DNA from: a virus
DNA: 51,853 nucleotides
Virus record (IMG/VR): IMGVR_UViG_3300044998_000080
Direction: 5' to 3' (one strand)
Position numbers and translations under genes: made by a program
Notes under the pieces: model-generated
Databases searched by the model: none
What the model was told of the DNA's origin: nothing
Seen by the model: only the letters and a program-made list of their open reading frames with translations
In this document: positions 14,957 to 51,853 of the stretch, in pieces
Position numbering within the stretch: position 1 is the stretch's first letter
Layout: each line of letters starts with the position of its first letter

Positions 14957-15084
14957 GGTGCGGCCCTCGCTTCGGCGTTGCGCTTCTCGCGGGCCTCACG
15001 GCGGGCCAGCGGGTGAAGGTGGCTCTTCGCACGCGCGCGCAACTTCTCGGCGTGAACTTGCCAGGGTTGCGGCTTCGTGTTCAC
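14953..15084 (-). CDS. Hypothetical 43-aa basic micro-protein (not in the ORF track)
   Basis: GTG 15084 and stop 14953 both sit in GTGA overlaps, linking the two flanking ORFs. Translation: VNTKPQPWQVHAEKLRARAK... Confidence 0.3.
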   Translation of the reverse strand: MNTKPQPWQVHAEKLRARAKSHLHPLARREAREKRNAEARAAP

Positions 15085-17137: not shown

Positions 17138-17379
17138 GCAACACTCTTACGCGGTTTCGAAACTTGAGTCAACGACACGGGCGCGCGAAATGCGCCAGGG
17201 CTCGCGAGGGCTCGCGAGAAATCACCCGCGTCGACCTTGATCGTGAGTTCGCTCGTACCATTCGGCCCTGGCACGTTGAGAATGAGCTTGACGAACTTGT
17301 GAGGCTTCGTGCTCGGGCCCGATGCGGTGTGCGTCGTGATCTCGCGCTCGAGTGACTCGACATGAACGGAAGGGCTCAC
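17134..17379 (-). CDS. Hypothetical protein
   Basis: 81-aa ORF. GTGA overlaps at both ends. Confidence 0.5.
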   Translation of the reverse strand: MSPSVHVESLEREITTHTASGPSTKPHKFVKLILNVPGPNGTSELTIKVDAGDFSRALASPGAFRAPVSLTQVSKPRKSVA

Positions 17380-17570
17380 GGGTTCTCGATCCTTTCTTCG
17401 CGTTGGTCTTCGCGCTCGGCCGCTTCAACTTGCACGCGGGCGAGTTGCTCGGCTTGCGACTCACCGCGAATAATCGCGCGCCTCGAGCGCTCGGGCACCA
17501 TGCGCCAATGGTGCGAGCAAAACTCGCTCGAGCGCTTTCCGCGTCGACATTTGCGCACGATGCAACTCAC
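17376..17570 (-). CDS. Small CCCH zinc-finger protein
   Basis: CIVRKCRRGKRSSEFCSHHW. The same C-x-V-x2-C-x9-C-S-x-H-[WY] pattern occurs in 20429..20737. Confidence 0.55.
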   Translation of the reverse strand: MSCIVRKCRRGKRSSEFCSHHWRMVPERSRRAIIRGESQAEQLARVQVEAAEREDQREERIENP

Positions 17571-17812
17571 GCGCGGGCCTCGGGAAACGCGTTGCGTGAG
17601 AGGTTCGCCTTGATCGCGTAGTCTCGAGCGTTTCGAATTTGCTCGATCAACGCGCTCGCCTGATCCTCGTCGAGAATCATCGCGGTTCCGAGTTCTTCAT
17701 TCTCGAGCACGACGACGATCGCGGTTTTCGGCCGATCGTCTACCGTGATTTCGCTCGCGATCACCTTGATCGATTCCATGAGCCGAGCGGGCTTGTTGTT
17801 ATCATCACTCAT
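17567..17812 (-). CDS. Hypothetical acidic protein
   Basis: 81-aa ORF. ATG start overlapping the primase stop by 8 nt. Confidence 0.55.
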   Translation of the reverse strand: MSDDNNKPARLMESIKVIASEITVDDRPKTAIVVVLENEELGTAMILDEDQASALIEQIRNARDYAIKANLSRNAFPEARA

Positions 17813-20432
17813 GAGCTTCTTTCCTCTCGCTGATTACCGAGTTCTCGGTGTGAAGTTTCGTGCGAATCGCGCCAACGTCGCCGATCTGAAGTCGCTCAAC
17901 CCAATTCAGGATCAAGCCCGCGTCGATTCGGTGGAACGTGATCGACTTGCCTTGAACGATTGCCGATGCGCCCTCGTGCGAGAGCGAGCGCAACGCGCGG
18001 CCGAGTTGCGCGGCCGTCGGCACTTTGACCGAAGGCACGTAGCGCAACCAATGCGATTCTTTCGCGAGCGCTTCGGTGTTGACCCACACTTCGCCCGAGC
18101 CGAACATGACAAGCGGTGTCGGGATCGGCGCAACGTCGGCCAGGTAGCGAGCGAGCCATTCGCACACGAGCGACGCCATACCCGCGCCCGTTGCGAGGTG
18201 TCGATGAAACTCGCTGGCGTTGCCTTCGACGAGAAAACGCGCGCCCTCGTTGACCGTGCGATTCGCTCGCAACCAAAGCGAGTGTTCGGCGATCATGTCG
18301 TGCTCGATCCAGCGAGTGATCGTCGGCGGCCCGCCGATGCTCTCGAGGTATTCCTTCGGCCGGTTGTCGGATCGCAAGTAATAGATGCGGCTCGCGATCG
18401 CCTCGAGGTCATTCGCCGAAAGCTCTTCGCCCGTGTCGAGAAGCCGATCGTTATTGCCCGCGATGATCACGCGCACGGCACCCTCGAGCGGTGCGGTCGG
18501 GAGAAACTTTCGATTCAGGGTGCGTTTCGTCGACCCGATGAAACGACGAAGCTCGGCCGTGATTCCCTTGCGCGTAGGAAGCGCTTCGTCGGCCAGCACG
18601 AGCGGACACGCGATCAACGACTCGTTGAATCCGTCGAGAACGCGCGCAAGCTCACTCGGCCCGCCCGTTGTCCAAAGGCGAGCGAGACCCGACGCGAGAA
18701 GCGTTTTCCCGATTCCGCCCGGCCCGTCGAGATACACGGCGCACGACTGACGATCGAGACGAGAAGCGGTCGCGACCCAATCGAGCAACCGCAACGAGGG
18801 ATCGAGCAAGCGAAGCCACATGTCGACTTGCTCGTGAAAGCGCGGCTCGAGTCGGCGGATTGGTGTCGTCGCCTCGAAGAACGTTTGCGAGGTCGGCTCG
18901 TAGTAGCTTCGTTGCAGCGAGAGCGACGCTTCTACCTGACGCGCAACGGTCGAATAGTCGTGAAGGATCGCGCGCACCTCACGCATTCGCGTATTGCCCC
19001 GCTGATCGGTCGCGAAGAGCGAAACGGGAGCGCGGGCCAGGTCACGCACGATCGAATGCTCGAGGTTCGAGCGCGGGATCGGCGGGAGGTAGCGACCCTC
19101 AACGAAAATGTAGAACGAATCAGCCCGCGCGATGATCCATCGGCGTTGGAAGTCGAGAACGTCGACGCACCGTTGAGCCCGAGCCCATTCGGCAAGCTCG
19201 CTCTCTTCGTAGGGCCCGATCACCGTCGGCGCGGCCGAGGTCTCGAGCGATTCCGAACTTCCTGGCGCGTCGCCCGTCGGCGTGTTCGAGGTCGCGACCC
19301 GATCGGGAATGTGACCCGAGCGAGCGGCCTCGGCGCGAAGTCGACCGAAGATTTCCTCATTTGTTGCGGCTCGCGCGGCGTCGTGAGCGATCCGACGCTC
19401 GAGCGCGCGATCGAGCTTCTTTCGGGCCTCTTCGTGCCAATCTTCGAGTTCGCCCGAGGGAAGGATCTTGCGCTCGAATCGACCGACGCTCTCGGCCAGG
19501 ATCGCGAGAAGTACACCCGTCGGGATCGTCGGCGGAACCGCGAAGCGTGCGGCCGCACACAAGCGGTTCAAGGTGTCGTCGCGCGAACCCTCTTCGGCGA
19601 GTTGCTCACCCTTGAGAGCGCGCTTGATCAGGTCGGCGTTTCGCCCGCCCGCGCTCGAGAGCAGCTTGCGAACGTGCTCGAGATCGACGGGTTGATCGTG
19701 CGCGGCGTGCGCGGCGGCTCGAGCTTCGGCGATCTTCGAGTCGGCGATCTCGCTCGCCCGCGCGGTGATCAGCAAGGCGCGCGATTCGGTCAAGATCTCG
19801 TCGACGTTGAGCGGCGCGGTTCCGTCAGTCGTCGCGGCGAACGTCAACGCGTCGGGCGGCGCGGCCGGGAGGTAATAGAGGCGCGCGGGATCTTTGGTGC
19901 TCGGGTCGTTGTAGAAGCCGAACCGCTTTTCGACACCCGCTCGAAACGGCACGTTCTCGGCCGGGAGCAACGGGCGCGAGAGTTTGAACGCGATTCGACA
20001 CTTCGGGCGTTCGGGGTTGTAGCGGTAGCTTGAATGCACAACGGCGGCGACGCCTGACGATTCGATCGACTCGAGCACGCGGCCGAAGGTCTCGGGATCG
20101 ATCGGCTCTTTGGGCGCTCTCTCGTCGAGATCGAACACGCCAACGGTCACACGTTCGACGTTCACCGCGAGACGCTTCGAGCCTGGCTTGAACTCGGCCG
20201 GAACCCACGCGGGCCCGCTCTTGCCCGAATCCGTTGAGCCCGTGCCTTTGCACGCATCACACCCGGTGCCCGCGCCTTCACACCTCGGGCACGGGAGCGA
20301 CGGGCGGCGATCGTGGTGAAGCAAAAGCGCGGTGAGGTCTTCCCACGGGAGCGCGATCGGCTTCGGCTGATTATCGCGCTCGTGATCGAAGAGCGCGAGC
20401 GTAATTTGATCGGTCATGGGCGGGCGGCTCAC
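17805..20432 (-). CDS. Primase-helicase (AEP prim-pol domain + D5/P4-like SF3 helicase)
   Basis: VGVFDLDE and VVHSSYR (AEP-like). YLDGPGGIGKTLLA (Walker A) and PLVLADEAL (Walker B). N-terminal CPRCEGAGTGCDACKGTG. Confidence 0.8.
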   Translation of the reverse strand: MSRPPMTDQITLALFDHERDNQPKPIALPWEDLTALLLHHDRRPSLPCPRCEGAGTGCDACKGTGSTDSGKSGPAWVPAEFKPGSKRLAVNVERVTVGVFDLDERAPKEPIDPETFGRVLESIESSGVAAVVHSSYRYNPERPKCRIAFKLSRPLLPAENVPFRAGVEKRFGFYNDPSTKDPARLYYLPAAPPDALTFAATTDGTAPLNVDEILTESRALLITARASEIADSKIAEARAAAHAAHDQPVDLEHVRKLLSSAGGRNADLIKRALKGEQLAEEGSRDDTLNRLCAAARFAVPPTIPTGVLLAILAESVGRFERKILPSGELEDWHEEARKKLDRALERRIAHDAARAATNEEIFGRLRAEAARSGHIPDRVATSNTPTGDAPGSSESLETSAAPTVIGPYEESELAEWARAQRCVDVLDFQRRWIIARADSFYIFVEGRYLPPIPRSNLEHSIVRDLARAPVSLFATDQRGNTRMREVRAILHDYSTVARQVEASLSLQRSYYEPTSQTFFEATTPIRRLEPRFHEQVDMWLRLLDPSLRLLDWVATASRLDRQSCAVYLDGPGGIGKTLLASGLARLWTTGGPSELARVLDGFNESLIACPLVLADEALPTRKGITAELRRFIGSTKRTLNRKFLPTAPLEGAVRVIIAGNNDRLLDTGEELSANDLEAIASRIYYLRSDNRPKEYLESIGGPPTITRWIEHDMIAEHSLWLRANRTVNEGARFLVEGNASEFHRHLATGAGMASLVCEWLARYLADVAPIPTPLVMFGSGEVWVNTEALAKESHWLRYVPSVKVPTAAQLGRALRSLSHEGASAIVQGKSITFHRIDAGLILNWVERLQIGDVGAIRTKLHTENSVISERKEAHE

Positions 20433-20737
20433 TTCGACGAGCGACGAGCCTCACGCTTCGAGCGCACGGCGTCAAGGGTCGTCTTGACGTGCGCTTCGAC
20501 GATCGAGCGAACGAACTCGCTCGCGCTCTTCTTCGCCTTGCGGGCCTCGAGGAACACGGCCGCCTTGCCGTCGCGAGAGAGAGTGAAGTTCACGGTCGCG
20601 CCTTCACCGGGCTTCGAGATCGAGCGGCTCTTTCCGAGCCGACCTCGGCGATCTTGCATGTAGTGACGAGAGCACATGCCTTTTGCTCGCGCCCCCTCGT
20701 TACAGCCCGCGACCTCACACTTCGTTTCGGTGCTCAT
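20429..20737 (-). CDS. CCCH zinc finger + ribbon-helix-helix-like DNA-binding protein
   Basis: CEVAGCNEGARAKGMCSRHY, then VNFTLSRDGKAAVFLEARKAKKSASEFVRSIV. SD is AAAGG. Confidence 0.6.
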   Translation of the reverse strand: MSTETKCEVAGCNEGARAKGMCSRHYMQDRRGRLGKSRSISKPGEGATVNFTLSRDGKAAVFLEARKAKKSASEFVRSIVEAHVKTTLDAVRSKREARRSSK

Positions 20738-20774
20738 GGTGCCTTTGCTACTACTCTTCGGGTGAGAGTGTCAA
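20738..20774 (-). promoter_or_regulatory. Candidate internal promoter sharing the TTGACACTCTCACCCGA box with the 25177-25210 cassette
   Basis: Minus strand reads TTGACACTCTCACCCGAAGAGTAGTAGCAAAGGCACC-ATG. The -10 is weak and uncertain. This one has a leader. Confidence 0.35.
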
Positions 20775-21194
20775 CTAGAGAACTTCGGCCAGGTCTCGAA
20801 CGTGCCAGTCGCCGAGTTCGATCCACCCGGCGATCTCGCTCACGCGACGCTCGAACGCGTGATCGTGAAGGTCGTTCTTTCGTTCGACCCATTCGACGAC
20901 GTGCGCGCATTCGTGCGCCAGGGTGAGCCAGGTCGCGCACGGGTCAAGCTCGAGGCGACCGAAGCGCAACGACCCGCGCGTTTGCAGGTCGGCAATCGAA
21001 GTGTGGAGCTTGTCACACGAGCGATTGCGCTTGATCGAGGTCACGAGCGGGCGGCCGATCAACGATCGACCGATCGCGTTCAACCGCTCGAGGTGACGCA
21101 CGAAAGCCCACGCGCCACGAAGCGAGACCGGGTGACACGCGAGTTCGGGCCAGCGCTCGAGTTCTCGCGCGTACACCTTGAACGCGTAGCGCAT
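20775..21194 (-). CDS. SprT-like zinc metalloprotease
   Basis: 139 aa with LTLAHECAHVVEW (HExxH) and a downstream HDHAF. Confidence 0.6.
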   Translation of the reverse strand: MRYAFKVYARELERWPELACHPVSLRGAWAFVRHLERLNAIGRSLIGRPLVTSIKRNRSCDKLHTSIADLQTRGSLRFGRLELDPCATWLTLAHECAHVVEWVERKNDLHDHAFERRVSEIAGWIELGDWHVRDLAEVL

Positions 21195-21196
21195 GG

Positions 21197-21403
21197 TCAG
21201 CGAATCCGAACGCGACCTTCGCGGTTGAGATCGAGCCCGTCTTGAGTCTCGTCAATCTCAACGTTCGTTGAGAGAGCGATCACCTCGTCGACGTTGAGCA
21301 GCACGCCGATCTCGTCGGTATTGATCTTCGCGAGGATCTCTTTCGCGAGCGTGCTCTTACCCGACGCGTGCGGCCCGCTGATCAGGACCTTGATCGTTCG
21401 CAT
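21197..21403 (-). CDS. 68-aa protein with a Walker A motif only
   Basis: MRTIKVLISGPHASGKSTLAKEIL... No Walker B or lid region fits in 68 aa. Confidence 0.5.
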   Translation of the reverse strand: MRTIKVLISGPHASGKSTLAKEILAKINTDEIGVLLNVDEVIALSTNVEIDETQDGLDLNREGRVRIR

Positions 21404-21404
21404 G

Positions 21405-21617
21405 TCACACGCTCCCGAGCAACTCGTGATAAGTCAGATCGATCTCGTCGCCCGGCTTGCGCTTGCTCTTCGCTTCGTTGTACGCGGCGATCGCGAGTTC
21501 GCGAATGTCGAACACGATCTCAAACTCGGTCGGGCTCGCCTTACCGACGGCCGAGATCGTGTTGAAGCGGTTCGGGAGCTTCGTGTCACGCGTGCGAATC
21601 TTGAGAACGTAGCTCAT
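21405..21617 (-). CDS. Hypothetical protein
   Basis: ATG 21617 in an ATGA overlap (MSYVLKIRTRD...). The upstream part of the track ORF is Arg-rich junk. Confidence 0.5.
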   Translation of the reverse strand: MSYVLKIRTRDTKLPNRFNTISAVGKASPTEFEIVFDIRELAIAAYNEAKSKRKPGDEIDLTYHELLGSV

Positions 21618-21916
21618 TTCTTCCTCTTGAATGCATCGGGGTTGTTGTAGCGAAAGCCGAAGGTTTCGTTCTTCCTCTTCTGACGCTCGATCTTGCGCTG
21701 CTCTTCGGCCTCGAGCTTCGCGCGCTTTTCGTTCTCGTGCTCGAACACGAGGTTCGCAAGGCGGTTGATCTTCTCGCTTCGCTTGCCAGGGTAGAAGCAA
21801 TGAACGCCTCGGTGCCCTGGCGAAAGCGAGCAATAGGCGACCTCGAACGTGAGAACGCCCGCGCTCGAGCCGAGGTGATACGCGAACCGAGCCGAGCAAA
21901 ACTCGAGCGGCTTCAC
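21614..21916 (-). CDS. Hypothetical protein with a basic C-terminus
   Basis: 100-aa ORF. GTGA overlap at the start. Confidence 0.5.
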   Translation of the reverse strand: MKPLEFCSARFAYHLGSSAGVLTFEVAYCSLSPGHRGVHCFYPGKRSEKINRLANLVFEHENEKRAKLEAEEQRKIERQKRKNETFGFRYNNPDAFKRKK

Positions 21917-22131
21917 GGCGCGATCTCTCGGTCGACGAACTCGATCGCGGCGGCGAAGACCTTCGAGATCGCGTCGGCGCGGTTGCGGCCGCTCTCGATC
22001 AACTCGCGGTAGCGAAGCTCTTGCGTTTCGTCAGTCTCGATCGAGAACGTGATCCGCATGTTCGCGTGGCACATGTCGTCAACCGTGCGAGTCGAGATCT
22101 TGAGAGCCTTGATCACCTTGTCGTGAGCCAT
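21913..22131 (-). CDS. Hypothetical small protein (possible RHH-type regulator)
   Basis: ATG 22131 is preceded by GAGGTGAACAA. Translation: MAHDKVIKALKISTRTVDDMCHANMRITFSIE... Confidence 0.5.
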   Translation of the reverse strand: MAHDKVIKALKISTRTVDDMCHANMRITFSIETDETQELRYRELIESGRNRADAISKVFAAAIEFVDREIAP

Positions 22132-22135
22132 TTGT

Positions 22136-22435
22136 TCACCTCGAACCGATCGTGAAGGCACGACACGCGCGCGGATCGGTCGGCACGCACGGGTCAGGGT
22201 AGAAGTTGAAACACTTTCGAATGAACCCCTCGGCGTCACGCTCTAACACGACGCAAAGCCCAGGGTAAAGGTGCAAGTAATGACCGGGCTCGAGCACGTC
22301 GACGCCGTTCGGGGTTTCGCCGATCACGACCGAGGGAAGCGGCGGCGGCTCGATCTCGGGCTCGAGCGGGCCACACGCCACGAAGAGAAACGCGGTGAGG
22401 TAAAGAGCGCGCACGGTTCGCCTTTCAGTCGCCAT
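22136..22435 (-). CDS. Putative lipoprotein
   Basis: MATERRTVRALYLTAFLFVAC-GPLE: basic n-region, hydrophobic core, lipobox-like FVAC. Confidence 0.5.
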   Translation of the reverse strand: MATERRTVRALYLTAFLFVACGPLEPEIEPPPLPSVVIGETPNGVDVLEPGHYLHLYPGLCVVLERDAEGFIRKCFNFYPDPCVPTDPRACRAFTIGSR

Positions 22436-22507
22436 AGCCGAGGGTGCCGTTGAACTCGCGCACATTGAGCGGCGAGACCCATTCGCGGCGATCCTCGTAG
22501 TAGAAGC

Positions 22508-22975
22508 TCACGAACACGTCGAAAACGTGCCCCTCGGTGTCGGCCTCGATCTTCCGAACGTGCGCTTCGCCTTTCGGGCGCACCTCGAGCCGCAAAAGCG
22601 CTTCGGCCGATTCCCGCGCCCGTCGGCGCGCTTCGGCGCACCCTGGATCGGCTTGCCACACTCGAGGCACGTCGACGGGCGTTCGACGGCGCGCGCTTCG
22701 GTCGCCTTGCGGTTGTGGAACCTCACGCGGCATTTATCCGAGCAATACGAGCGCAACCAACCCTTGCCCGTGCCACGGTGATCGAATTCGCGACCGCACC
22801 CTTTGCAGGGCTCGATCGTCGACCGCTTCAACCGTGGGGCTCGAGCGTCGGCGGCCGCAACGCGTTTCACCTCGAGGTCATGCGCTCGAAGGTCGTAGGC
22901 GATTGCGCTCGCAACGGGCCAGGGCTCACCGTACCCGAGAAGCTCGAGCGTTTCCGAGTCGAGTTCGAGGCTCAC
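22508..22975 (-). CDS. Double zinc-ribbon protein
   Basis: Two units: CKGCGREF...YCSDKCRVRF and CLECGKPI...FCGSRCARKA. GTGA overlap at the start. Confidence 0.6.
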   Translation of the reverse strand: MSLELDSETLELLGYGEPWPVASAIAYDLRAHDLEVKRVAAADARAPRLKRSTIEPCKGCGREFDHRGTGKGWLRSYCSDKCRVRFHNRKATEARAVERPSTCLECGKPIQGAPKRADGRGNRPKRFCGSRCARKAKRTFGRSRPTPRGTFSTCS

Positions 22976-23418
22976 GTTTTGTTCTCGAGGTCAGCTGCGT
23001 TCATTTCCTGGATCGCCCGCTCTTCAGGATCTTTGATTCGGCTGATCCAGATCCTTCGACCCGCGATCGTGAGTTCGATCGCTTCCGCGAAGTTGGTTGC
23101 GGTCTTCTCGAACTTCCCGCCCTTCGCGTGACCGAGTGCCTCGAGCTTGCGCGCATACTGGCGCGCGGTGACCGTTGAGAGCCCCGTTTCACGCACGAGC
23201 CCCGCGACCGTCAACGCGCCGCACCTCGCGAGCGCATCGCGCACGAGGGCTTGCCCGTGGGGCTCGGCGAAGTCGAATCCTTCGGTCTCGGCTCGAACCT
23301 TGTTGATCAAGCTCTCGAACGCCAGCGAGAGATCGTCGATTTTTCGAATCCTGGCGTAGCGCTGGATCCAGTCGAACGCGGGGTGAGACAAGAGGATTTG
23401 AAGCGGTTGTTTTTCCAT
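22972..23418 (-). CDS. Winged-helix DNA-binding protein, first gene of the leftward unit
   Basis: 148 aa. LTVAGLVRETGLSTVTARQYARKLEALG. ATG with a GAGG SD. Confidence 0.6.
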   Translation of the reverse strand: MEKQPLQILLSHPAFDWIQRYARIRKIDDLSLAFESLINKVRAETEGFDFAEPHGQALVRDALARCGALTVAGLVRETGLSTVTARQYARKLEALGHAKGGKFEKTATNFAEAIELTIAGRRIWISRIKDPEERAIQEMNAADLENKT

Positions 23419-23437
23419 TTTTCGACCTCGTTTTATT

Positions 23438-23465
23438 CCGAGAAATTCGGAAACGGCAGTTTCCC
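23438..23465. repeat. Operator-like repeat, left copy (contains the dyad GGAAAC-GGCA-GTTTCC)
   Basis: CCGAGAAATTCGGAAACGGCAGTTTCCC. 20 of 28 positions are identical to 23555-23582. Confidence 0.5.
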
Positions 23466-23478
23466 AACTAACGCGCGC

Positions 23479-23490
23479 GATCTATAGATC
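23479..23490. promoter_or_regulatory. Perfect 12-bp palindrome GATCTATAGATC, operator candidate at the predicted PL start site
   Basis: Read directly from the sequence. It lies immediately downstream of the candidate PL -10. Confidence 0.5.
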
Positions 23491-23518
23491 AATATCATCA
23501 CTTCTTTCTATATGTCAA
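23491..23518 (-). promoter_or_regulatory. Candidate leftward promoter PL
   Basis: Minus strand reads TTGACA (23518-23513), 16 nt, GATATT (23496-23491). This is the AT-richest part of the window. Confidence 0.4.
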
Positions 23519-23554
23519 GAGAGAAAGAGGATCATTGGTAGTAGTAGGTAGCGG

Positions 23555-23582
23555 CCGAGATTTCGGGAAACCGCCGTTTTCG
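23555..23582. repeat. Operator-like repeat, right copy
   Basis: CCGAGATTTCGGGAAACCGCCGTTTTCG, just upstream of the PR -35. Confidence 0.5.
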
Positions 23583-23591
23583 ATTTTCGAA

Positions 23592-23621
23592 TTGACAAAG
23601 GCGAATTTTCACCCGTAAATT
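23592..23621 (+). promoter_or_regulatory. Candidate rightward promoter PR
   Basis: TTGACA (23592-23597), 18 nt, TAAATT (23616-23621). The ATG at 23632 is only 10 nt downstream, so the leader is very short or absent. Confidence 0.4.
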
Positions 23622-23631
23622 CACGCTCACC

Positions 23632-24123
23632 ATGTCTTCGCCAGATCAGCGCATCATTCGAGACCCGCGCACGGGCCAGATTCAGAAGGGCTCGAGGCTC
23701 AACCCGAGCGGGCGCAACGGGTCGCGCTCGCCCATGTGGAACATGCTCGATCAAATGCTCGGCGAGAACGCGATCGAGTGCTACGTGTTCGCGGCGAACG
23801 TCATGCGAGGTCAGGTCAGCGCACCCGCTCGAAAGCCCGCGCCCGGTGAGGATTCCTCGAGCGCGGCCTTGATCCCGCTGATCGGGCCCACCATTCGCGA
23901 GAGACTCGACGCGGCTCTTTGGTTGGCCGAGCAACGCAACGGGCGCGCGCCCTCGAGCACGAGCGTTGAACTCACCGCAAACGTGAACATGCCGCTCGCC
24001 CGCCTGGATCCCTCGAGGCTCACCGACGCCGAGCTTGAGCAATTCGAAACCCTCGCCTTGAAAGCGGTCACGCATGACGCCGAGGGTGAGATCGTCGACG
24101 CCGAGATCGTGAGCCCGAAATGA
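23632..24123 (+). CDS. DUF5681-like protein, small terminase candidate
   Basis: The N-terminal GQIQKGSRLNPSGRNGSRS resembles the G.SGNP.GRP motif of DUF5681/TerS-like proteins. First rightward gene. Confidence 0.45.
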   Translation: MSSPDQRIIRDPRTGQIQKGSRLNPSGRNGSRSPMWNMLDQMLGENAIECYVFAANVMRGQVSAPARKPAPGEDSSSAALIPLIGPTIRERLDAALWLAEQRNGRAPSSTSVELTANVNMPLARLDPSRLTDAELEQFETLALKAVTHDAEGEIVDAEIVSPK

Positions 24124-24166
24124 TCGCGCTCTCGGTCGCGTTCTTCATGGCGCTCGTGATCCTCGG

Positions 24167-24355
24167 TTACGACGACGACCCGCCCTCGCCCGCCTGAACC
24201 CAACGAGCGAGCGTCGACCCACACTCGCAATTTCGAAACTCGAGCTTTTGATCGTGAAGTTCGTCGGTCGGGTCGTCGACGCGATCACCGTGCCCGATTA
24301 GCTCGAGGTCGCCCCATTCGGCCGACCTCGAGCAACAAGAGCAATCGACCTTCAC
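24167..24355 (-). CDS. Hypothetical Cys-rich small protein
   Basis: 62 aa with CSCC...CECG. GTGA overlap with the upstream stop. Confidence 0.5.
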   Translation of the reverse strand: MKVDCSCCSRSAEWGDLELIGHGDRVDDPTDELHDQKLEFRNCECGSTLARWVQAGEGGSSS

Positions 24356-24792
24356 GCGTAGAACCGAGCCAGGATCCGCAAGAAAGCCGCGTGAACGGCC
24401 GTTTCATCGTGCCAGGATTCACGCACGGTAACCATGCGCCCGCCACCGAGCGCGGCCGAATCCCATTCGCGCACCTTGCGGCCGGTGAACACGACCTTCA
24501 CAAGATCGCTGTAGACGTGCCACCCGAGCCGAAAGGTCGTTTCGTAAGGGTGAACGTAACGCTCGCCCGATTCGGTCTCGTAGATCTCAAGATTGCTCTC
24601 ATGCTTAGGGTTCGCGTTCGGCCAAAGAGCCGAGAACTCGATCGCGATCGCCTTCCACAAACGGCGCATTCCCTCGAGGTCGCCTTTCTTCGAGAGCGCG
24701 GGAAGCAAGCGATAGAGAACCTCGGTCATGGGCGAAGCGGGGTTCACGTCGATCAAGCGGCGGGCGAAAACCTTGTCGGTCGTGTCGGTCAT
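24352..24792 (-). CDS. Hypothetical protein (cassette-proximal, leaderless ATG)
   Basis: 146 aa. ATG 24792 lies 6 nt downstream of the cassette -10. No SD. Confidence 0.6.
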   Translation of the reverse strand: MTDTTDKVFARRLIDVNPASPMTEVLYRLLPALSKKGDLEGMRRLWKAIAIEFSALWPNANPKHESNLEIYETESGERYVHPYETTFRLGWHVYSDLVKVVFTGRKVREWDSAALGGGRMVTVRESWHDETAVHAAFLRILARFYA

Positions 24793-24866
24793 GAGAGAAA
24801 GATAACAGAACGCTTCGAGTTGTCAACACGAAATCGAAGAGCCCGGTCGATTTCTCGATCGGGCCC
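24793..24866 (-). promoter_or_regulatory. Terminator-promoter cassette, class A copy 1
   Basis: Hairpin 24839-24866. -35 TTGACA 24826-24821. Extended -10 TGTTATCTT ending at 24799. TCTCTC, then ATG. Confidence 0.6.
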
Positions 24867-24879
24867 TGATTTCGCTCGC

Positions 24880-25176
24880 TTAGAGCTTCGTGTAAAGGCC
24901 GGTGAGATCCTCGAACACGCGGCGCAACGAATCCGCGTAGACCTGGCTCACGGGCTCACCGTAGGCGCACATATTGAGCCCGCGCCCGCGATAGGCTTGC
25001 ACGGTGTAAGTATCGTCGGCCTCGAGGGTGATCACGATGCACGACGCACGCGAGATCGTCGGGAGCTTCATTTGCAGCCCGCGCCCGGTATCGAGCAAGC
25101 CCTTCGCGCCCGTCATGGTGAGGAATCGGTTACCGCCGAGTTGCTCGAGAATCGTCGTCGCGATCGCGTTGGTCAT
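24880..25176 (-). CDS. Conserved phage protein of unknown function (cassette-proximal, leaderless ATG)
   Basis: 98 aa. MTNAIATTILEQLGGNRFLTMTGAKGL... resembles a widespread phage/plasmid family whose name I cannot recall. Confidence 0.6.
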   Translation of the reverse strand: MTNAIATTILEQLGGNRFLTMTGAKGLLDTGRGLQMKLPTISRASCIVITLEADDTYTVQAYRGRGLNMCAYGEPVSQVYADSLRRVFEDLTGLYTKL

Positions 25177-25252
25177 GAGGGAATAATAACGGGTCGGGTG
25201 AGAGTGTCAACAAGAAAAGAGCGGGCCCGGTCGATTTCTTCCGAGCCCGCTC
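25177..25252 (-). promoter_or_regulatory. Terminator-promoter cassette, class B variant
   Basis: Hairpin GAGCGGGC/GCCCGCTC 25219-25252. TTGACA 25210-25205, 16 nt, TATTAT 25188-25183, TCCCTC, then ATG 25176. Confidence 0.55.
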
Positions 25253-25258
25253 GAGCGG

Positions 25259-25489
25259 TCAGGTCTCTTCGTAGCGCACGACTCCAGGGGCCTCGAACAT
25301 GGGCCCGTTGAGCCCGGTCACGAAAGGCGCGCCGTCGATCTCGGGCTTGATCGGGAGCCGAACCGCGCGCTTCACCTTGCCCGTGAAGAACCAACCACGA
25401 ACCGCGCACGCGGGCTCGAGGTTCTCGAACTTCACGCGGATCGTGCCCGCGCTCTTCGTGACGATCACCGCTTCGGTTGCCGTGCTCAT
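25259..25489 (-). CDS. Hypothetical protein
   Basis: 76 aa. SD GAAAGGAAC upstream of ATG 25489. Confidence 0.55.
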   Translation of the reverse strand: MSTATEAVIVTKSAGTIRVKFENLEPACAVRGWFFTGKVKRAVRLPIKPEIDGAPFVTGLNGPMFEAPGVVRYEET

Positions 25490-25508
25490 TTTGTTCGTTC
25501 CTTTCAGG

Positions 25509-25688
25509 TCACTTGTTGCGAAGGGTCTCGTAGATCTCGCCCGCCAACTTCTCGAACGCGCCCGCGCCGAGCACTCGATCGAACGATTCTCGAGTCGAGA
25601 GCCCGGCCGCCTTGTGCGCCAGGATCGCGGCGGAAATGAGAGCGTTCTTTTCAGCGGTCTTCGTGTCGGTCGCGGCGTTTGCGTTCAT
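25509..25688 (-). CDS. Hypothetical 59-aa protein (not in the ORF track; cassette-proximal, leaderless ATG)
   Basis: MNANAATDTKTAEKNALISAAILAHKAAGLSTRESFDRVLGAGAFEKLAGEIYETLRNK. ATG lies 6 nt after the -10. Confidence 0.5.
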   Translation of the reverse strand: MNANAATDTKTAEKNALISAAILAHKAAGLSTRESFDRVLGAGAFEKLAGEIYETLRNK

Positions 25689-25722
25689 GAGAGAAAGATA
25701 ACAGAACGATTCAAGGTGTCAA
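25689..25722 (-). promoter_or_regulatory. Class A promoter copy (no upstream hairpin)
   Basis: TTGACA 25722-25717, 16 nt, TATCTT 25700-25695, TCTCTC, then ATG 25688. Confidence 0.55.
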
Positions 25723-25776
25723 CACCTAATCGAACGAAAATCGACCGACGCGGCGCGTTGCGGTAGGGTCGCGCGT

Positions 25777-27276: not shown

Positions 27277-27477
27277 ACCCTCGAGAGCACCGACGCGACG
27301 CCGCACGCGCTCGGCGCGAGAGCTTGCGCCAGGGTGCCGCTACGAGATACCCTCGAGCGCGGACCCACTAGCAGGGCGGCCGGGGCGTAACCCGCGACAC
27401 GCGTGCGGGGCTAGAAATCGCGAGGGCATGGCATGGTTGGGCGCAAGCCTCGAGTGCCGCGTGTTCTACCGAGCGCG

Positions 27478-27503
27478 CCCGCTTCGGTGGGTTTCCTCTT
27501 TTT
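27478..27503 (+). terminator. Weak intrinsic-terminator-like hairpin in the TerL-portal spacer
   Basis: CCCGC-TTCG-GTGGG followed by TTTCCTCTTTTT. Confidence 0.35.
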
Positions 27504-27534
27504 CGCTCGCGTGCGTGCGTGGTAGCTTCGGCTC

Positions 27535-31304: not shown

Positions 31305-32522
31305 TTGGGTATCCCGTTTCGCAATCCGAACGCGGGTCGACTCACCCGGCGCTTTGTTGCGCGCTCGGGCGTCGATCTGCTTACGGGTCGTGTCGACGGT
31401 GGATCAGCACAAGCGGCCGAGAACGTTTTTCGTGACGGTATTTTCGGAACGGTCGCGAGCAACGTAACCGTTTCGCCGAATGGTCTCGCGATCGCGGTGA
31501 CGCTCGGTGCGCCTGGCGTGTCAGCGACCGCGACCGTTTCACCGAACGGGCTTGCGATCCCGATCGCCTTCGGTTCGCCGACGGTGCAACCGGGCTCGGT
31601 GAACGTCTCGCCGAACGGTCTCGCAATCGCGGTGACGCTCGGCGCGCCCTCGGTGCAACCGGGTTCGGTGAACGTCTCGCCGAATGGTCTCGCGATCCCG
31701 GTGAGCTTCGGTTCGCCTTCGGTCACGCAACCGATCGTGATCTCGCCGAACGGGCTTGCGATCCCGCTCGCGTTCGGCGCGCCCTCGGTGCAACCGGGCT
31801 CGGTGAGCATCGCACCGAACGGCGTTGCGATCGCGGTGACGCTCGGCGCGCCCTCGGTGCAACCGGGCTCGGTGAACGTCTCGCCGAACGGTGTTGCGAT
31901 CCCGCTCGCGTTCGGCGCGCCCTCGGTGCAACCGGGCTCGGTGAACATCGCGCCGAACGGCGTGCTCATTCCGCGCACGCTCGGCACGCCAACGATCACG
32001 GCGACCGCTTCGATCTCACCGAACGGCGTTGCGATCTCGGTGAGCTTCGGTTCGCCGACGGTGCAACCGGGCTCGGTGAGCATCGCGCCGAACGGCGTTG
32101 CGATCCCGGTGAGCTTCGGTTCGCCGACGGTTGGCAACAACACGATCGCGCCGAGCAACGTCAGTGTGAACGGGCTCGCTATTCCGTTCAACTTCGGCCG
32201 CCCGTCGATCACGCCCGGCTCGGTGAACGTCTCGCCGAATGGGCTTTCGATCTCGGTCGCGTTCGGGTCACCCTCGGTCACCTCGATCGCTACGGTCTCG
32301 CCGAGCGGGTTCAAGATCCCGGTCACGTTCGGCGCGCCTGCTCTCGTCTACAACCAAAACGTTTCACCGAACGGCGTCTTGATTCCTCTCACGTTCGGGT
32401 TGCTCGTGATCGCTGATCGCTCGAATGAGCGGGTCGTGTATCGTGGCCCGCCGTTGCGGTTTCCGTCAGGCTCGAGCCGAGGTGCGCTCGGGTTCACTCC
32501 TAAGCGGGGCAAATGGACATGA
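31305..32522 (+). CDS. Tandem-repeat protein (~14 x 21-23 aa SPNG-AI-x-G-P-VQPGSV units)
   Basis: 405-aa ORF. The start (TTG 31305) is uncertain. The repeats are read directly. Confidence 0.6.
   Translation: MGIPFRNPNAGRLTRRFVARSGVDLLTGRVDGGSAQAAENVFRDGIFGTVASNVTVSPNGLAIAVTLGAPGVSATATVSPNGLAIPIAFGSPTVQPGSVNVSPNGLAIAVTLGAPSVQPGSVNVSPNGLAIPVSFGSPSVTQPIVISPNGLAIPLAFGAPSVQPGSVSIAPNGVAIAVTLGAPSVQPGSVNVSPNGVAIPLAFGAPSVQPGSVNIAPNGVLIPRTLGTPTITATASISPNGVAISVSFGSPTVQPGSVSIAPNGVAIPVSFGSPTVGNNTIAPSNVSVNGLAIPFNFGRPSITPGSVNVSPNGLSISVAFGSPSVTSIATVSPSGFKIPVTFGAPALVYNQNVSPNGVLIPLTFGLLVIADRSNERVVYRGPPLRFPSGSSRGALGFTPKRGKWT
31464..32403 (+). repeat. In-frame tandem repeat array, unit 63-69 bp, ~14 copies
   Basis: Several units are near-identical in DNA, e.g. 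gcgccctcggtgcaaccgggctcggtgaacgtctcgccgaacgg recurs. Confidence 0.85.
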
Positions 32523-33355
32523 TGAATCGGGGCGCATTCAAGGCACTCGTGCAAGCGGGCGGCGCACAACGCGCGCGCGTAGCGCTTCCGAAAATGGCGC
32601 TTCCGACGGCGCAAGCTCGGCGCTACTCGCGCGCGTTGCGCGGGAAACTTCTCGCCGACGCTCTCGCGCTCGTGCGCGCGAAGCTCGTGCCGAAGCTCGA
32701 GGCTCTCGCCGAGAACACCTCGAAGATCGCAACGAGCGTTCGCACCGACGCCGACGAGATCGGGAACACTCTCGACGAGATTCAAACCGAGTTTCTTTCG
32801 AAATGGTCGCGTCGACGAATGACCTCGCTCGTGCGCCCGGTCGCCGAAGAGATCGAGCGCTTTCACGCGACGCAACTCAACCGCTCGTTGCGCGCGGCCG
32901 TCGGTGTTGACGTGGTTGGGTCTGAACCCTGGCTCGAGAAATCGATCGACGAGTTCACGGCCGAGAACGTCGGCTTGATCAAGTCGATCCCGACGCGGTT
33001 CTTCGACGACCTCGAGACGAACTTGAAGCGTGAACTCGCCGACGGTGCCCGCTGGGAAGAACTCGCGGGAATCGTAGAAGAGCGCTACGGCGTCGCTCAA
33101 TCACGCGCGGAATTGATCGCGCGCGATCAGGCGGGAAAGTTCTTCGGCGATCTCAACCGAGTTCGTCAGGGCGACCTCGGGATCGAGCGCTTCACATGGC
33201 GCACGATGCACGACAACCGAGTTCGTGAAGAGCACGAGGCGCGAGACGGCGAAGCGTTCGCTTGGAACGATCCGCCCGACGGTGAGACACCGGGCGAGCC
33301 CGTGTTGTGCCGCTGCTACGCCGAGCCCGACCTTGCGGGCTTGCTCGAAGACTAG
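32513..33355 (+). CDS. Head morphogenesis protein (Mu F / SPP1 gp7 family)
   Basis: C-terminal FTWRTMHDNRVREEHEARDGEAFAWNDPPDGETPGEPVLCRCYAEP. Confidence 0.8.
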   Translation: MDMMNRGAFKALVQAGGAQRARVALPKMALPTAQARRYSRALRGKLLADALALVRAKLVPKLEALAENTSKIATSVRTDADEIGNTLDEIQTEFLSKWSRRRMTSLVRPVAEEIERFHATQLNRSLRAAVGVDVVGSEPWLEKSIDEFTAENVGLIKSIPTRFFDDLETNLKRELADGARWEELAGIVEERYGVAQSRAELIARDQAGKFFGDLNRVRQGDLGIERFTWRTMHDNRVREEHEARDGEAFAWNDPPDGETPGEPVLCRCYAEPDLAGLLED

Positions 33356-33627
33356 TCTCGACGAAAGAACACGAGCGCGAACGCGTGAGAGAGGATCGGC
33401 GCGGGCGGGTTCTTCGGGTCGGCCGAAAGCCGATCGACCTCATACCCGAGCGCGATCCGAAGCTCACGCGTCGCGTTGTCGAGAGCGGCTTGTTCGTGCG
33501 GCTCGAGCTTGAAGTGTGCGCGGATCTTCTCGCACGCCTGGGAAATCGCCTGAAACGCGAAGACCTTCTCACGCGCCCGATCTGAGAGAACCTCGAGCGC
33601 TTCTCGGTACGTGAACGGGAGCTTCAT
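33352..33627 (-). CDS. Hypothetical protein
   Basis: ATG 33627 in an ATGA overlap (MKLPFTYREALEVLSD...). Its stop shares CTAG with the MuF-like stop. Confidence 0.5.
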   Translation of the reverse strand: MKLPFTYREALEVLSDRAREKVFAFQAISQACEKIRAHFKLEPHEQAALDNATRELRIALGYEVDRLSADPKNPPAPILSHAFALVFFRRD

Positions 33628-33872
33628 TCGATCGCCTTCCTGATTGCGTTGATTGCCGCGTGAGGATCTTCGAAACCGTAGAACTCGGCGCGCGCCGTTC
33701 CCTTGCGAGCAACGATCACGTAAGGCCCGCTCATGCCCTGGCGCGGCTCGCTCGAAAGCTCGAGCTTCGGCCCGCGCTTTCCCGACCAATCCCGCTCGCT
33801 CAACACGTGGATCACCGCGTCGGTACGTCGACGCCAGCGACCGAACACGAACACTTCGTCATGCTCGCTCAT
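33624..33872 (-). CDS. Hypothetical protein
   Basis: ATG 33872 in an ATGA overlap (MSEHDEVFVFGRWRRR...). Confidence 0.5.
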   Translation of the reverse strand: MSEHDEVFVFGRWRRRTDAVIHVLSERDWSGKRGPKLELSSEPRQGMSGPYVIVARKGTARAEFYGFEDPHAAINAIRKAIE

Positions 33873-34324
33873 GCGCGCACCTTGACCCATTCGACAACCG
33901 CGTTCAAGTCGGCCGACTCGATCCGATCCCATTTGTTCGGCCCGACCTTGTGCGCGGCATGGAATCCGCCGAAACCGTTGAGGCCGATCTTGAACGCGGC
34001 GGCCGCATTCTCGGGCGACGACTTGCGAAGGTTCGTGATCGCTTCGACCGACGCCTGATATTCGCGCTCGTAGAGACCGCGATCGAAAGCGCGCGCACAC
34101 GCGATCTGCTCTTCGTGTGCCCGCTCGGTCTCGCGACGAATCTTCGCGGCGTTGAACTTCTCACCCGTGCGACCGCTCAACGCGCGGGCGGCGCACACAC
34201 ACCCGAAATAGACGATCTCGCCGTCGACCTCGAGGGCGGCCGTCGACTTGAGCCCGGTCTTGCCGCACAAGTCGCACGCCGAAACTTCGTCAGTCCAACC
34301 GAGAAACGTGATCGCGTTGTTCAT
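33869..34324 (-). CDS. Hypothetical Cys-cluster protein (cassette-proximal, leaderless ATG)
   Basis: 151 aa. MNNAITFLGW...CDLCGK...GCVC. ATG lies 6 nt after the -10. Confidence 0.6.
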   Translation of the reverse strand: MNNAITFLGWTDEVSACDLCGKTGLKSTAALEVDGEIVYFGCVCAARALSGRTGEKFNAAKIRRETERAHEEQIACARAFDRGLYEREYQASVEAITNLRKSSPENAAAAFKIGLNGFGGFHAAHKVGPNKWDRIESADLNAVVEWVKVRA

Positions 34325-34399
34325 GAGAGAAAGATAACAGAATGATTCGAGGTGTCAACACGAAAAGTGAAGGGCCCGGTCGATTTCTTGATCGGGCCC
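34325..34399 (-). promoter_or_regulatory. Terminator-promoter cassette, class A copy
   Basis: Hairpin 34372-34399. TTGACA 34358-34353, 16 nt, TATCTT 34336-34331, TCTCTC, then ATG 34324. Confidence 0.6.
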
Positions 34400-34412
34400 T
34401 GGTTTCGGTCGC

Positions 34413-34625
34413 TTACGCGCCGATCCCGGCGTCTCGCAAGTCACCTCGAGTGACCCAAATCAGCGAACCGCAAATGTCGGCTTGCGCCCGACAATTCACT
34501 TCGCCGATCGAGACGATCGTGAAGCGGTGACCCGCGCGGAAGAAACAACCGATCGGCGAGGTGTAGTCGCGCGCGATCGTGAAGGTGGAACCGACAACGA
34601 GAGAGGAAGTGTTGTTGTTGTTCAT
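34413..34625 (-). CDS. Hypothetical protein (cassette-proximal, leaderless ATG)
   Basis: 70 aa. MNNNNTSSLVVG... A single-gene unit flanked by two cassettes. Confidence 0.55.
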   Translation of the reverse strand: MNNNNTSSLVVGSTFTIARDYTSPIGCFFRAGHRFTIVSIGEVNCRAQADICGSLIWVTRGDLRDAGIGA

Positions 34626-34698
34626 GAGAGAAAGATAACAGAACGCTTCGAGTTGTCAACACGAAATCGAAAGGGCCCGGTCGATTTCGATCGGGCCC
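34626..34698 (-). promoter_or_regulatory. Terminator-promoter cassette, class A copy
   Basis: Hairpin 34673-34698. TTGACA 34659-34654, 16 nt, TATCTT 34637-34632, TCTCTC, then ATG 34625. Confidence 0.6.
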
Positions 34699-34711
34699 TG
34701 GTTTCGCGCGT

Positions 34712-35014
34712 TTAGGCCCAACGAGTGAGCTTCAAACGGTCACCAACGACGATCACCGCGAACCCCGTTGCGAGCGCGAACCGATTGCGGTTGCGGTTGA
34801 AACCGCCCGACACGCACGACCAATTGAAGAGGTGATTACCGCCACCCGACGCGACGAACATGCGCCCGTCATTGTTGACGGGAACGCTCGCGCGGGTCAC
34901 CTCTTCGTTGAGGCACGCGGGATCGTACCCGTTGAGGTCGACTCGGCCGAGCAAGCCGAGCCGCTCGAGTTCGTTGCGAAGCGTCGTGATCTCTTCAGTC
35001 TTGAGAAAGTTCAT
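34712..35014 (-). CDS. Hypothetical protein
   Basis: 100 aa. SD GAAAGG upstream of ATG 35014. Confidence 0.55.
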   Translation of the reverse strand: MNFLKTEEITTLRNELERLGLLGRVDLNGYDPACLNEEVTRASVPVNNDGRMFVASGGGNHLFNWSCVSGGFNRNRNRFALATGFAVIVVGDRLKLTRWA

Positions 35015-35032
35015 TGTGTGCGCCTTTCGTTT

Positions 35033-35224
35033 TCAGCCGAGGGTGTAGTGAGCGACTTGTTGATCGTGCGGAAGAGAGTTGAGGTGCGCGGCAAGCTCGA
35101 GCGCTTGCGCGTGCGTGAGGTCGGTTTTGAAGAAGCGGCCGCCAACGACCGCGAAGGTGTGATCCGGGCCCGACGAGATTTTCGAAAGACCGTTGAGAGC
35201 AGCGGTGAAGAGCGCGTTGTTCAT
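35033..35224 (-). CDS. Hypothetical protein (cassette-proximal, leaderless ATG)
   Basis: 63 aa. MNNALFTAALNG... Confidence 0.55.
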   Translation of the reverse strand: MNNALFTAALNGLSKISSGPDHTFAVVGGRFFKTDLTHAQALELAAHLNSLPHDQQVAHYTLG

Positions 35225-35290
35225 GAGAGAAAGATAACAGAACGCTTCGAGATGTCAACACGAAATCGAAAGGGCCCGGTCGATTTCTCG
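35225..35290 (-). promoter_or_regulatory. Class A cassette copy with a truncated hairpin
   Basis: TTGACA 35258-35253, 16 nt, TATCTT 35236-35231. Only the left hairpin arm (gggcccggtcgatttc) is present. Confidence 0.55.
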
Positions 35291-35351
35291 GTTTACCGTT
35301 AGGTTTCGCACACTTGCGCGCGCGGTCGAAAAGCTCGATCCTTCGATCATC

Positions 35352-51431: not shown

Positions 51432-51853
51432 ATGGCGCTCGAGGCGATCAACGATCACGTCAGTCAAGCTCTCGCGCGGCTCGAGTTGCAGTTTCGCGAC
51501 TCGGCCGACGTGCTCGGGATCACGAGCGCGCTCGCCCTCGAGGTGCAAGCGCTCGAAGACGCGTTTCAGCAACTCAACACGTTGTTTCGCTCGGTCAATG
51601 CCGCAACGGGCGCGACACTCGATCGCATTGGCGAGATCGTCAACGCACCCGCTCGGGGTCTTCGAGACGACGCCGAAACGCGAACGATGCTCTATGCGGC
51701 GATCTCGCGCAACGTGTCTTTCGGTCGCGTCGAAGACTTTCTGACCGTGCTCAATAGCATTCTCGGCGGCAACTATTGGGATCGCCCCTTCGCGATCGAC
51801 GCGAACGATACGTTCACGGGCCCGTCAGGAGCGAAGGGCGGCGATCAGGTTCT
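51432..51853 (+). CDS. 5' part of the wrap-around baseplate / fibre-attachment gene (continues at 128..350 after collapsing the overlap)
   Basis: ATG 51432. No stop before the window end. Same frame as ORF 21..350. Confidence 0.6.
   Translation, partial: MALEAINDHVSQALARLELQFRDSADVLGITSALALEVQALEDAFQQLNTLFRSVNAATGATLDRIGEIVNAPARGLRDDAETRTMLYAAISRNVSFGRVEDFLTVLNSILGGNYWDRPFAIDANDTFTGPSGAKGGDQV
51727..51853. repeat. Terminal direct repeat, identical to 1-127
   Basis: See the first feature. Confidence 0.9.

Follow-up and report, generated by a model that had tools for sequence, protein, structure and literature searches.

Small antisense genes with repeated predicted promoter cassettes in a conserved slot between two phage head genes

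Why would a phage carry a block of small genes between two of its head genes, facing the opposite way? The question is raised by a virus sequence in IMG/VR (record IMGVR_UViG_3300044998_000080), of which the full 51,853 nucleotides (nt) were analyzed and are called the window here. In it, a 2-kilobase (kb) block of six minus-strand open reading frames (ORFs) in three units, which we call island B, lies between the end of a MuF-like head morphogenesis gene at 33355 and the start of a scaffold-like gene at 35352. The reading that we favor, with a probability of roughly 0.6, is that island B is a dock of small accessory genes equipped with early-type cassettes, and that the cassettes also act as portable homology.

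Six antisense genes in three cassette-led units

A first-pass annotation of this DNA had counted seven minus-strand ORFs in the block; our reading gives six, whose listed lengths were correct. The features of the locus are as follows (aa, amino acids).

32513..33355, plus strand: MuF-like head morphogenesis gene (PF04233, E 7e-17)
33352..33627, minus strand: B91, 91 aa, last gene of unit 1, a helical-bundle protein
33624..33872, minus strand: B82, 82 aa, unit 1, its start overlapping the B151 stop (ATGA)
33869..34324, minus strand: B151, 151 aa, leads unit 1; its N terminus has a CxxC...CxC zinc-ribbon-like domain
34331..34358, minus strand: predicted cassette 1 promoter, for B151-B82-B91
34361..34407, no strand assigned: cassette 1 GC hairpin (core 34371-34400), which follows the B70 stop and precedes the B151 promoter
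34413..34625, minus strand: B70, 70 aa, sole gene of unit 2, with MNNNN at the cassette ATG
34632..34659, minus strand: predicted cassette 2 promoter, for B70
34662..34706, no strand assigned: cassette 2 GC hairpin (core 34672-34699), which follows the B100 stop and precedes the B70 promoter and may terminate transcription in both directions
34712..35014, minus strand: B100, 100 aa, second gene of unit 3, an ORFan with its own GAAAGG Shine-Dalgarno sequence
35033..35224, minus strand: B63, 63 aa, first gene of unit 3, with MNN at the cassette ATG and no family match
35231..35258, minus strand: predicted outer cassette promoter, for B63, with the -10 ending 6 nt before the ATG
35259..35351, no strand assigned: divergent intergenic region from the outer cassette to the scaffold start, with a half hairpin and AAATCGACCG, orthologous in the relatives L003 and L138
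35352..36542, plus strand: scaffold-like gene of the DUF2213 (Pa193_gp24) family (PF09979, E 3e-41)

The six ORFs are coding on the minus strand. Their GC content at the three codon positions (GC1/GC2/GC3) is about 0.6/0.45/0.77, as in bona fide structural genes. Plus-strand ORFs of 230, 156 and 132 aa in the same interval were rejected as shadows, since they have the wrong codon-position GC or contain translated cassette repeats. Direct reading of the sequence places ATGA start/stop overlaps at 33624-33627 and 33869-33872, and B82 is probably translationally coupled to B151. At the far end of the block, the MuF stop TAG (33353-33355) and the B91 stop (complement of 33352-33354) share a CTAG, just as the first-pass annotation had noted.

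Every unit is led by a cassette. Read on the minus strand, its order is the previous stop codon, a GC hairpin, a T-rich stretch, TTGACA, 16 nt, TG-T-TATCTT, TCTCTC and ATGAAC. The window holds six copies of this repeat family, all on the minus strand: three in island B and three in a second block, island A, described below. A 38-nt promoter pattern was matched five times against 0.00 expected, and the sixth cassette is a variant with TATTAT and TCCCTC. This repetition bears out the earlier proposal that three cassette-driven units lie antisense between the two head genes. The six predicted promoters have 10-11 of 12 consensus matches (TTGACA-16-TATCTT with TG), and in a genome-wide promoter scan the only sites with at least 10 of 12 were these six and a divergent pair at 23491-23621. 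A separate genome-wide scan, in which a -35 and a -10 had to be followed after 5-8 nt by a start codon opening an ORF of 30 aa or more, returned exactly the six cassette sites. Since the cassettes and the divergent pair are the only strong sigma-70-type promoters found, immediate-early expression of the cassette-led genes is suggested.

The geometry at the start codon is unusually tight. Cassette-led genes have no Shine-Dalgarno sequence, and the genes inside units have GGAAGG, AAGGTG or GAAAGG, or ATGA coupling. In all 12 cassettes that could be aligned from the window and from the relatives L003, L138 and L087, the -10 lies 6-7 nt from the start codon, which is always ATG, while the bases in between vary (TCTCTC, TCCCTC, TTCGTC, GGAAAGC, AGGGGC, GTGGGGC). 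In this alignment, TTGACA, the GTTA within the extended -10 (TGnTA) and CATGA do not vary. With the -10 6 nt from the ATG and no Shine-Dalgarno sequence, transcription should begin on the A of the ATG itself, which predicts that the cassette-led mRNAs are leaderless. The same spacing, TANNNT 6-7 bp upstream of an ORF, is an experimentally validated signature of leaderless genes in Deinococcus-Thermus (PMC12340547). The exact cassette had no match when searched for in IMG/VR.

As for the products, none of the six proteins had a significant match in Pfam, PHROGs, NCBIfam or the PDB sequences (PDB E of 0.05 or above), in agreement with the earlier statement that known domains are lacking. The sole PADLOC match for the six was a marginal one for B91 (E 0.007). 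B100 matched only itself among 5.8 billion proteins, and B91 has one database homologue besides a homologue in L003 found by BLAST. The AlphaFold2 model of B91 (predicted local distance difference test score, pLDDT, 88.5) is a generic helical bundle whose best PDB fold match, at E 0.8, is not significant. The idea that B91 is an Aca-like helix-turn-helix (HTH) repressor was dropped, because this bundle has neither an HTH nor a PDB fold match.

B151 is the best characterized of the six. The Cys clusters pointed out earlier correspond to C17-x2-C20...C42-x-C44, which is invariant in its homologues, seven of them close. Compared with a copy of 92% identity in an unrelated contig (L137, see below), its ratio of nonsynonymous to synonymous substitution rates (dN/dS) is 0.31, and the gene is thus under purifying selection. 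Its AlphaFold2 model is confident (pLDDT 91). A PDB fold search gave no match, and BFVD returned only uncharacterized viral proteins, including a Mycobacterium phage DS6A protein at E 3.8e-5. The N-terminal domain was found in 1152 representative proteins or clusters at E <= 1e-3, mostly of 110-150 aa. This family is absent from Pfam, and at least two larger proteins combine it in a fusion with ART-PolyVal ADP-ribosyltransferase domains, a domain type typical of the conflict proteins of phages and plasmids.

A conserved slot with shuffled cargo

Relatives were recovered by TerL- and scaffold-based searches, and related contigs were mapped by tblastn. In eight more distant relatives (L010, L096, L097, L101, L104, L106, L114 and L117), the interval from MuF to the scaffold gene is shorter than 200 nt, and the two genes abutting is, judged by these gene orders, the ancestral adjacency. 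L004, a distant low-GC relative, has no antisense island. An interval of 1.0-5.8 kb with antisense ORFs was found in L005 (82% TerL identity), L089 (59%), L090 (54%) and L095 (49%), and L138, from the same sample as L087 (a relative at 81%), has antisense genes in the slot too. Across thirteen other relatives in the table (32-82% TerL identity), the gap was put at 0.8-5.8 kb. At TerL identities of 32-44% the interval is 0.3-2.1 kb (L092, L093, L013, L108, L109, L115, L125, L133 and L082), and below about 45% it is occupied mostly by plus-strand ORFs or by C-terminal extensions of MuF. In L013, L115, L133 and L125 the apparent gap is really such an extension, 495-879 aa long, and their MuF proteins are fusion proteins.

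The cargo of the slot differs from genome to genome, as listed below.

Window: B63-B100, then B70, then B151-B82-B91
L138: a C5 methylase (368 aa), then a B151-like (54% identical) and a B82-like gene (57%)
L003/L005: a 117-aa gene, a B91-like gene (44%), a different C5 methylase (295 aa) and a 65-aa gene
L089: a gene like the B151 N terminus, a B82-like gene and a 71-aa Cys-rich gene
L146: the L003-type 117-aa gene (91%), a new 69-aa gene and a B91-like gene (64%)

L090 holds about twelve antisense ORFans and, beside MuF, a plus-strand ClpP-type protease. The slot is therefore conserved and its cargo shuffled, with the B151-B82 pair retained in L138 and L089. These data agree well with the proposal of an accessory block that varies and whose small genes are promoted independently, and the island ORFs are not conserved structural genes of related phages. 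One cargo gene was also seen outside the group: the phage contig L137, which is unrelated, has a B151 copy whose 92% nucleotide identity does not extend past the ORF. That contig has an AT-rich intergenic repeat of its own, about 155 nt long (1436-1600 and 2358-2513) and ending in AAAGGATxAGAGACATG; there, the shared cargo gene is surrounded by another kind of cassette system.

Could the block instead be a recent mobile island, inserted into a continuous MuF-scaffold operon, with the truncated outer cassette as its scar? The first-pass annotation had leaned this way, regarding the outermost half hairpin as an insertion boundary. The short MuF-scaffold gap of the eight distant relatives does mark the block as an addition to the ancestral order, and the outer cassette does lack one hairpin arm. 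However, antisense genes fill the slot at 82, 81, 59, 54 and 49% TerL identity, that is, in every relative examined down to the last value, so the addition is old and the slot not a recent insertion. Orthology between genomes extends to the outer cassette and its flank: the island B outer flank of the window is 73-77% identical to those of L003 and L138, and the outer flanks of island A are 69-71% identical between genomes. The outer cassette does lack the 5' hairpin arm, but its half hairpin is not an insertion scar. In addition, base composition is native, with a GC content of 0.60-0.63 in island B against 0.58-0.71 genome-wide and an identical GC3 pattern, and neither mobility genes (integrase, transposase) nor terminal inverted repeats nor target duplications were seen. 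We consider a recent insertion very unlikely. Descriptions of the block as an integron, transposon, CRISPR array or intron were rejected for want of an integrase or transposase, terminal repeats or regular spacing.

Cassette evolution, hairpins and the opposing late genes

Island A uses the same cassette system and was mapped as follows.

24167..25760, minus strand: island A, five small genes between a 163-aa ORF and TerL

Its genes encode ORFans of 62, 146, 98, 76 and 59 aa, and its predicted promoters lie at 24799-24826, 25183-25210 and 25695-25722. The island is present in L005, is reduced to one gene in L087 and is absent from L007, L088 and L089; in the left early arm of L005, a homologue of the 59-aa gene is preceded by a cassette of this type. 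The neighboring 163-aa ORF is a candidate small terminase without a family match, and its stop overlaps (ATGA) the start of a 25-aa hydrophobic ORF on the plus strand (24120-24197, MIALSVAFFMALVILGYDDDPPSPA).

Comparing cassettes within and between genomes gave a consistent pattern. Measured from the -35 to the ATG, the promoter cores of five window copies, spread over two islands 9 kb apart, share 92-100% identity, and those of L003 share 97%; at orthologous positions of different genomes the figure is only 50-64%. The cores are thus homogenized within genomes, and the outer flanks are orthologous: as these alignments read, the promoter module evolves in concert on a scaffold that is itself orthologous. 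In L138 the outer-type cassette has been duplicated. The only near-identical genomes found, L143-L145, offered no variants, all three being 100% identical fragments; two of these contigs end inside a cassette, an assembly effect.

A different explanation for the identity of the cassettes is a shared operator, through which a phage regulator would shut the early promoters together, with no role for recombination. The 10-mer AAATCGACCG occurs six times in the window, once per cassette and nowhere else (expected 0.55), and forms a dyad, GAAATCGA-N9-TCGATTTC, just upstream of the -35. The dyad is kept in the outer island B cassette, which has no GC stem, and in cassettes of L003, L089 and L138, and the sequence separating -35 from -10 is conserved inside each genome and differs from one genome to the next. 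The dyad may therefore be an operator. On the other hand, it is also part of the extended RNA hairpin, and no HTH or other DNA-binding protein that could be its partner was found in either island or beside the divergent promoters. A shared operator in place of recombination seems to us possible but rather improbable; the idea is compatible with the accessory-gene dock and does not exclude it.

The GC hairpins of the cassettes (GGGCCCGATC...GACCGGGCCC, with the stem extended by CGAAAUC/GAUUUCG) are predicted terminators in the inner cassettes, where the minus-strand folds reach -25 to -31 kcal/mol with z of -2.1 to -3.1 against shuffles. In cassette 2 the minus-strand fold has -30.9 kcal/mol (z -3.1) and the plus-strand fold -31.6 kcal/mol (z -5.4); the corresponding values for cassette 1 are -25.3 kcal/mol (z -2.6) and -28.5 kcal/mol (z -4.5). 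On the plus strand both inner hairpins form a perfect stem of 12-13 bp. One compensatory change was found, GGGCCCG/CGGGCCC in the window against GGGCTCG/CGAGCCC in L003. The outermost cassettes of both islands lack the full hairpin (z -0.5 for island B and 0.0 for island A), as do those of the relatives, because there is no upstream island gene to terminate.

At the convergence of MuF and B91, no terminator was detected in either direction. Transcripts of unit 1 should consequently run antisense into MuF, and MuF transcripts should enter the island until they meet the hairpins. A comparison of the region upstream of the scaffold gene with other plus-strand intergenic regions gave no shared late-promoter motif. 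Collision of the transcripts, with temporal separation or interference, is plausible.

Such an arrangement might have antisense silencing as its main role. Cassette transcription would then repress MuF and the upstream head genes early (the TerL side in the case of island A) through transcriptional interference or antisense RNA, and the ORFs would be passengers. The missing terminator after B91 agrees with this, as do the stronger plus-strand hairpins and the location of both islands at the start of key late genes (TerL, scaffold/major capsid protein). In Mu-like phages, moreover, late transcription downstream is disturbed when the strong acr promoters of the equivalent slot are not repressed (PMC9410906). 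On the other hand, the island genes have coding signatures, purifying selection and conserved homologues, and the cargo in relatives includes enzymes (C5 methylases). Nor is the antisense arrangement essential at the site of island A, which is absent or holds one gene in the close relatives L087, L007, L088 and L089. Silencing as the main role is therefore unlikely in our view.

The genome as a whole is complete at 51.7 kb, as indicated by an exact 127-nt direct repeat (1-127 = 51727-51853), which is either a circular assembly overlap or the terminal redundancy of a complete genome. A crude gene map drawn from codon-position GC places the virion arm on the plus strand, from 23632 round to 5431, with TerL, portal (PF06381), MuF, the scaffold-like gene, a cement protein, the major capsid protein, a sheath-like DUF3383 protein and baseplate J. 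The replication arm is on the minus strand (5290-23418) and encodes PolA, a DEAD helicase, a PD-(D/E)XK nuclease, a DUF5906 primase-helicase, a dNMP kinase, MazG and Dam. The tail-sheath and baseplate genes are best explained by a myovirus-like phage. Among the 56 window ORFs scanned there was no RNA polymerase, sigma factor, integrase, repressor or excisionase; with no polymerase gene of its own, the phage is probably transcribed by the host RNA polymerase. No DNA similarity was found to 50,697 deposited phages, and a hint to the host comes from TerL proteins of 40-44% identity in metagenome-assembled genomes of Acidobacteriota, Planctomycetota and Armatimonadota, among 185,579 species genomes.

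Several further observations were made along the two arms. The divergent promoter pair lies in an AT-rich control region (23420-23631), with promoters on the minus strand at 23518-23491 and on the plus strand at 23592-23621. The -10 of the latter stops 10 nt short of the ATG that opens the 163-aa ORF; this gene has no Shine-Dalgarno sequence and may be near-leaderless too. Between TerL and portal there is a 258-nt non-coding gap (27277-27534) with a terminator-like hairpin at 27477-27492, so the late arm looks split into several transcription units. Between portal and MuF lie a 405-aa protein (31305-32522, plus strand) and a 262-aa protein, both kept in L003 and L089 (also L088), neither of them matched in more distant relatives. 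The former consists of about 13 tandem units of 22-23 aa (66/69-nt period) with a consensus of roughly VSPNGLAIPxxFGxPSVQPGS and has no Pfam match. In the replication arm, ARAGORN and Rfam agree on a tRNA-Gln(UUG) at 11250-11322 (minus strand), and ARAGORN alone called an 88-nt tRNA-Ala(CGC)-like sequence at 14564-14651 (minus strand). The Rfam search found only a tRNA, and island B had no match in it.

This gene content also bears on whether the islands serve a prophage. Morons, a concept of Hendrix and Juhala developed for lambdoid and other tailed phages, are extra genes with their own promoter and terminator; classic morons differ from their surroundings in base composition and are typically expressed from the prophage. 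If the island units were lysogenic-conversion morons of this kind, their products might be superinfection exclusion or host fitness factors, and extra genes with a promoter and terminator of their own between genes that are adjacent in other phages would be explained. Yet the composition of the island is that of its flanks, and the scan mentioned above found none of integrase, repressor and excisionase. The phage has its own PolA, helicases, primase, dNMP kinase and MazG, which are typical of virulent phages, and the species genomes searched contain no close prophage copy, the best TerL match being 44%. We regard expression from a prophage as highly improbable.

The reading as an accessory-gene dock can be put as a sequence of steps. 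Islands A and B would be two hypervariable docks for small accessory genes in the virion arm. In each cassette the GC hairpin would end the upstream unit and a near-consensus host-type promoter would start the next, with the transcript beginning at the A of the start codon and genes inside units using AAGG-type sites or ATGA coupling. Unmodified host RNA polymerase could read the island genes immediately after infection, before the head genes and in the opposite direction, and their products would have host-takeover or anti-defense functions. The cassettes would serve as portable homology, so that the slot and outer flank are kept while gene sets change. We infer the early timing and the host-takeover or anti-defense roles, and the latter rest on context: host-type promoters, ORFan content, methylase cargo in relatives and the analogy to the acr slot.

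Several points weigh against this interpretation. The promoters, terminators, transcription starts and timing are inferred at the level of sequence. Sigma-70-type promoter rules and a capacity for leaderless translation may not be those of the host. In the L003 cassettes the -10 is TATCTA, without the final conserved T. The hairpins are followed by poor U-tracts, and their stem pairs more perfectly on the plus strand, so late read-through may be their main target, or they may serve as DNA- or protein-binding elements. Cassette identity within a genome could reflect a genome-specific regulator and not recombination. Finally, none of the six proteins matches a known anti-defense or takeover protein by sequence (or by fold, for B151 and B91), and the only recognizable cargo in any relative is a DNA methylase, which is the sole hint of an anti-defense role for island B.

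A bolder combination of these ideas is unlikely as a whole. In this combination the leaderless module would be plug-and-play, allowing any captured ORF to be expressed at once by the host machinery. Gene conversion, or co-evolution with a regulator binding GAAATCGA-N9-TCGATTTC, would keep the module identical across sites. The antisense placement before TerL and before scaffold/capsid would act as a timer, delaying the head genes until the early promoters are shut off, and the ORFans, including the conserved B151-B82 pair, would be new anti-defense or takeover proteins.

Comparison with known systems

Island B shares features with several known arrangements without coinciding with any of them. 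Integron cassettes are promoterless, whereas the island units each have a promoter of their own, and no integrase was found. Like morons, the units lie between genes that are adjacent in other phages and have their own predicted promoter and terminator; unlike classic morons, they are native in composition, share one repeated cassette and belong to a phage that looks virulent. Leaderless expression has a precedent among phages in lambda cI, which is leaderless when transcribed from PRM. The closest likeness in spacing is to the leaderless genes of Deinococcus-Thermus, with TAnnnT 6-7 nt upstream of an ATG that has no ribosome-binding site (PMC12340547). The cassettes differ from these in having a perfect -35 and an extended -10 as well, and in being restricted to a repeated phage element.

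In position, the best parallel is the acr-aca locus of Mu-like Pseudomonas phages, which has the Mu G homologue on one side and the protease/scaffold gene on the other (Pawluk et al. 2014, PMC3993853). Island B, between the PF04233 and PF09979 genes, occupies the equivalent slot. In both cases variable, small, unrelated genes are found at one conserved position, with a strong early promoter (predicted in island B) among late genes. The island B genes differ in being antisense to the head genes, in having one cassette per unit in place of one operon, and in having neither an aca-type HTH gene (no HTH family match) nor similarity to known Acr proteins. The MuF/scaffold junction thus appears to be a recurrent slot for accessory genes, analogous to the acr locus, and could provide a positional rule for finding candidate counter-defense genes in metagenomic phages. 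The candidates from this locus are the six ORFans, among them the conserved B151-B82 pair, and the zinc-ribbon domain of B151 has over a thousand unannotated relatives. If the predictions hold, early promoters firing head-on into late head genes would also make a testable developmental timer based on transcriptional interference.

In their organization, the cassettes most resemble the promoter-early stem-loop (PeSL) repeats of T4-type phages (Arbiol et al. 2010, PMC2839356; Comeau et al. 2014, PMC4122927). A PeSL is likewise a small repeated motif that combines a strong sigma-70-like early promoter with a stem-loop terminator immediately upstream of ORFans. PeSLs are concentrated in hyperplastic regions among core genes and tied to gene gain, loss and replacement; in the window, all six cassettes lie in two variable islands, upstream of genes without family matches. 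The differences are also clear. The present phage is not T4-like and has six copies, against about 50 in T4-type phages. Its hairpin lies upstream of the -35 and is GC-rich, where PeSLs have an AT-rich tract, and while the 3' end of a PeSL is a Shine-Dalgarno sequence and start codon, here there is no Shine-Dalgarno sequence and the -10 is 6 nt from the ATG. The units described here are antisense inside the head module. For PeSLs, recombination between cassettes and mini-circles have been described; in the present phage and its relatives, shuffled cargo at one slot was seen. Promoter-terminator cassettes that express and shuffle ORFans have been characterized mainly in T4-like phages; if the transcription predictions hold, the island cassettes extend this principle to an unrelated, uncultured phage lineage and to a leaderless-mRNA design.

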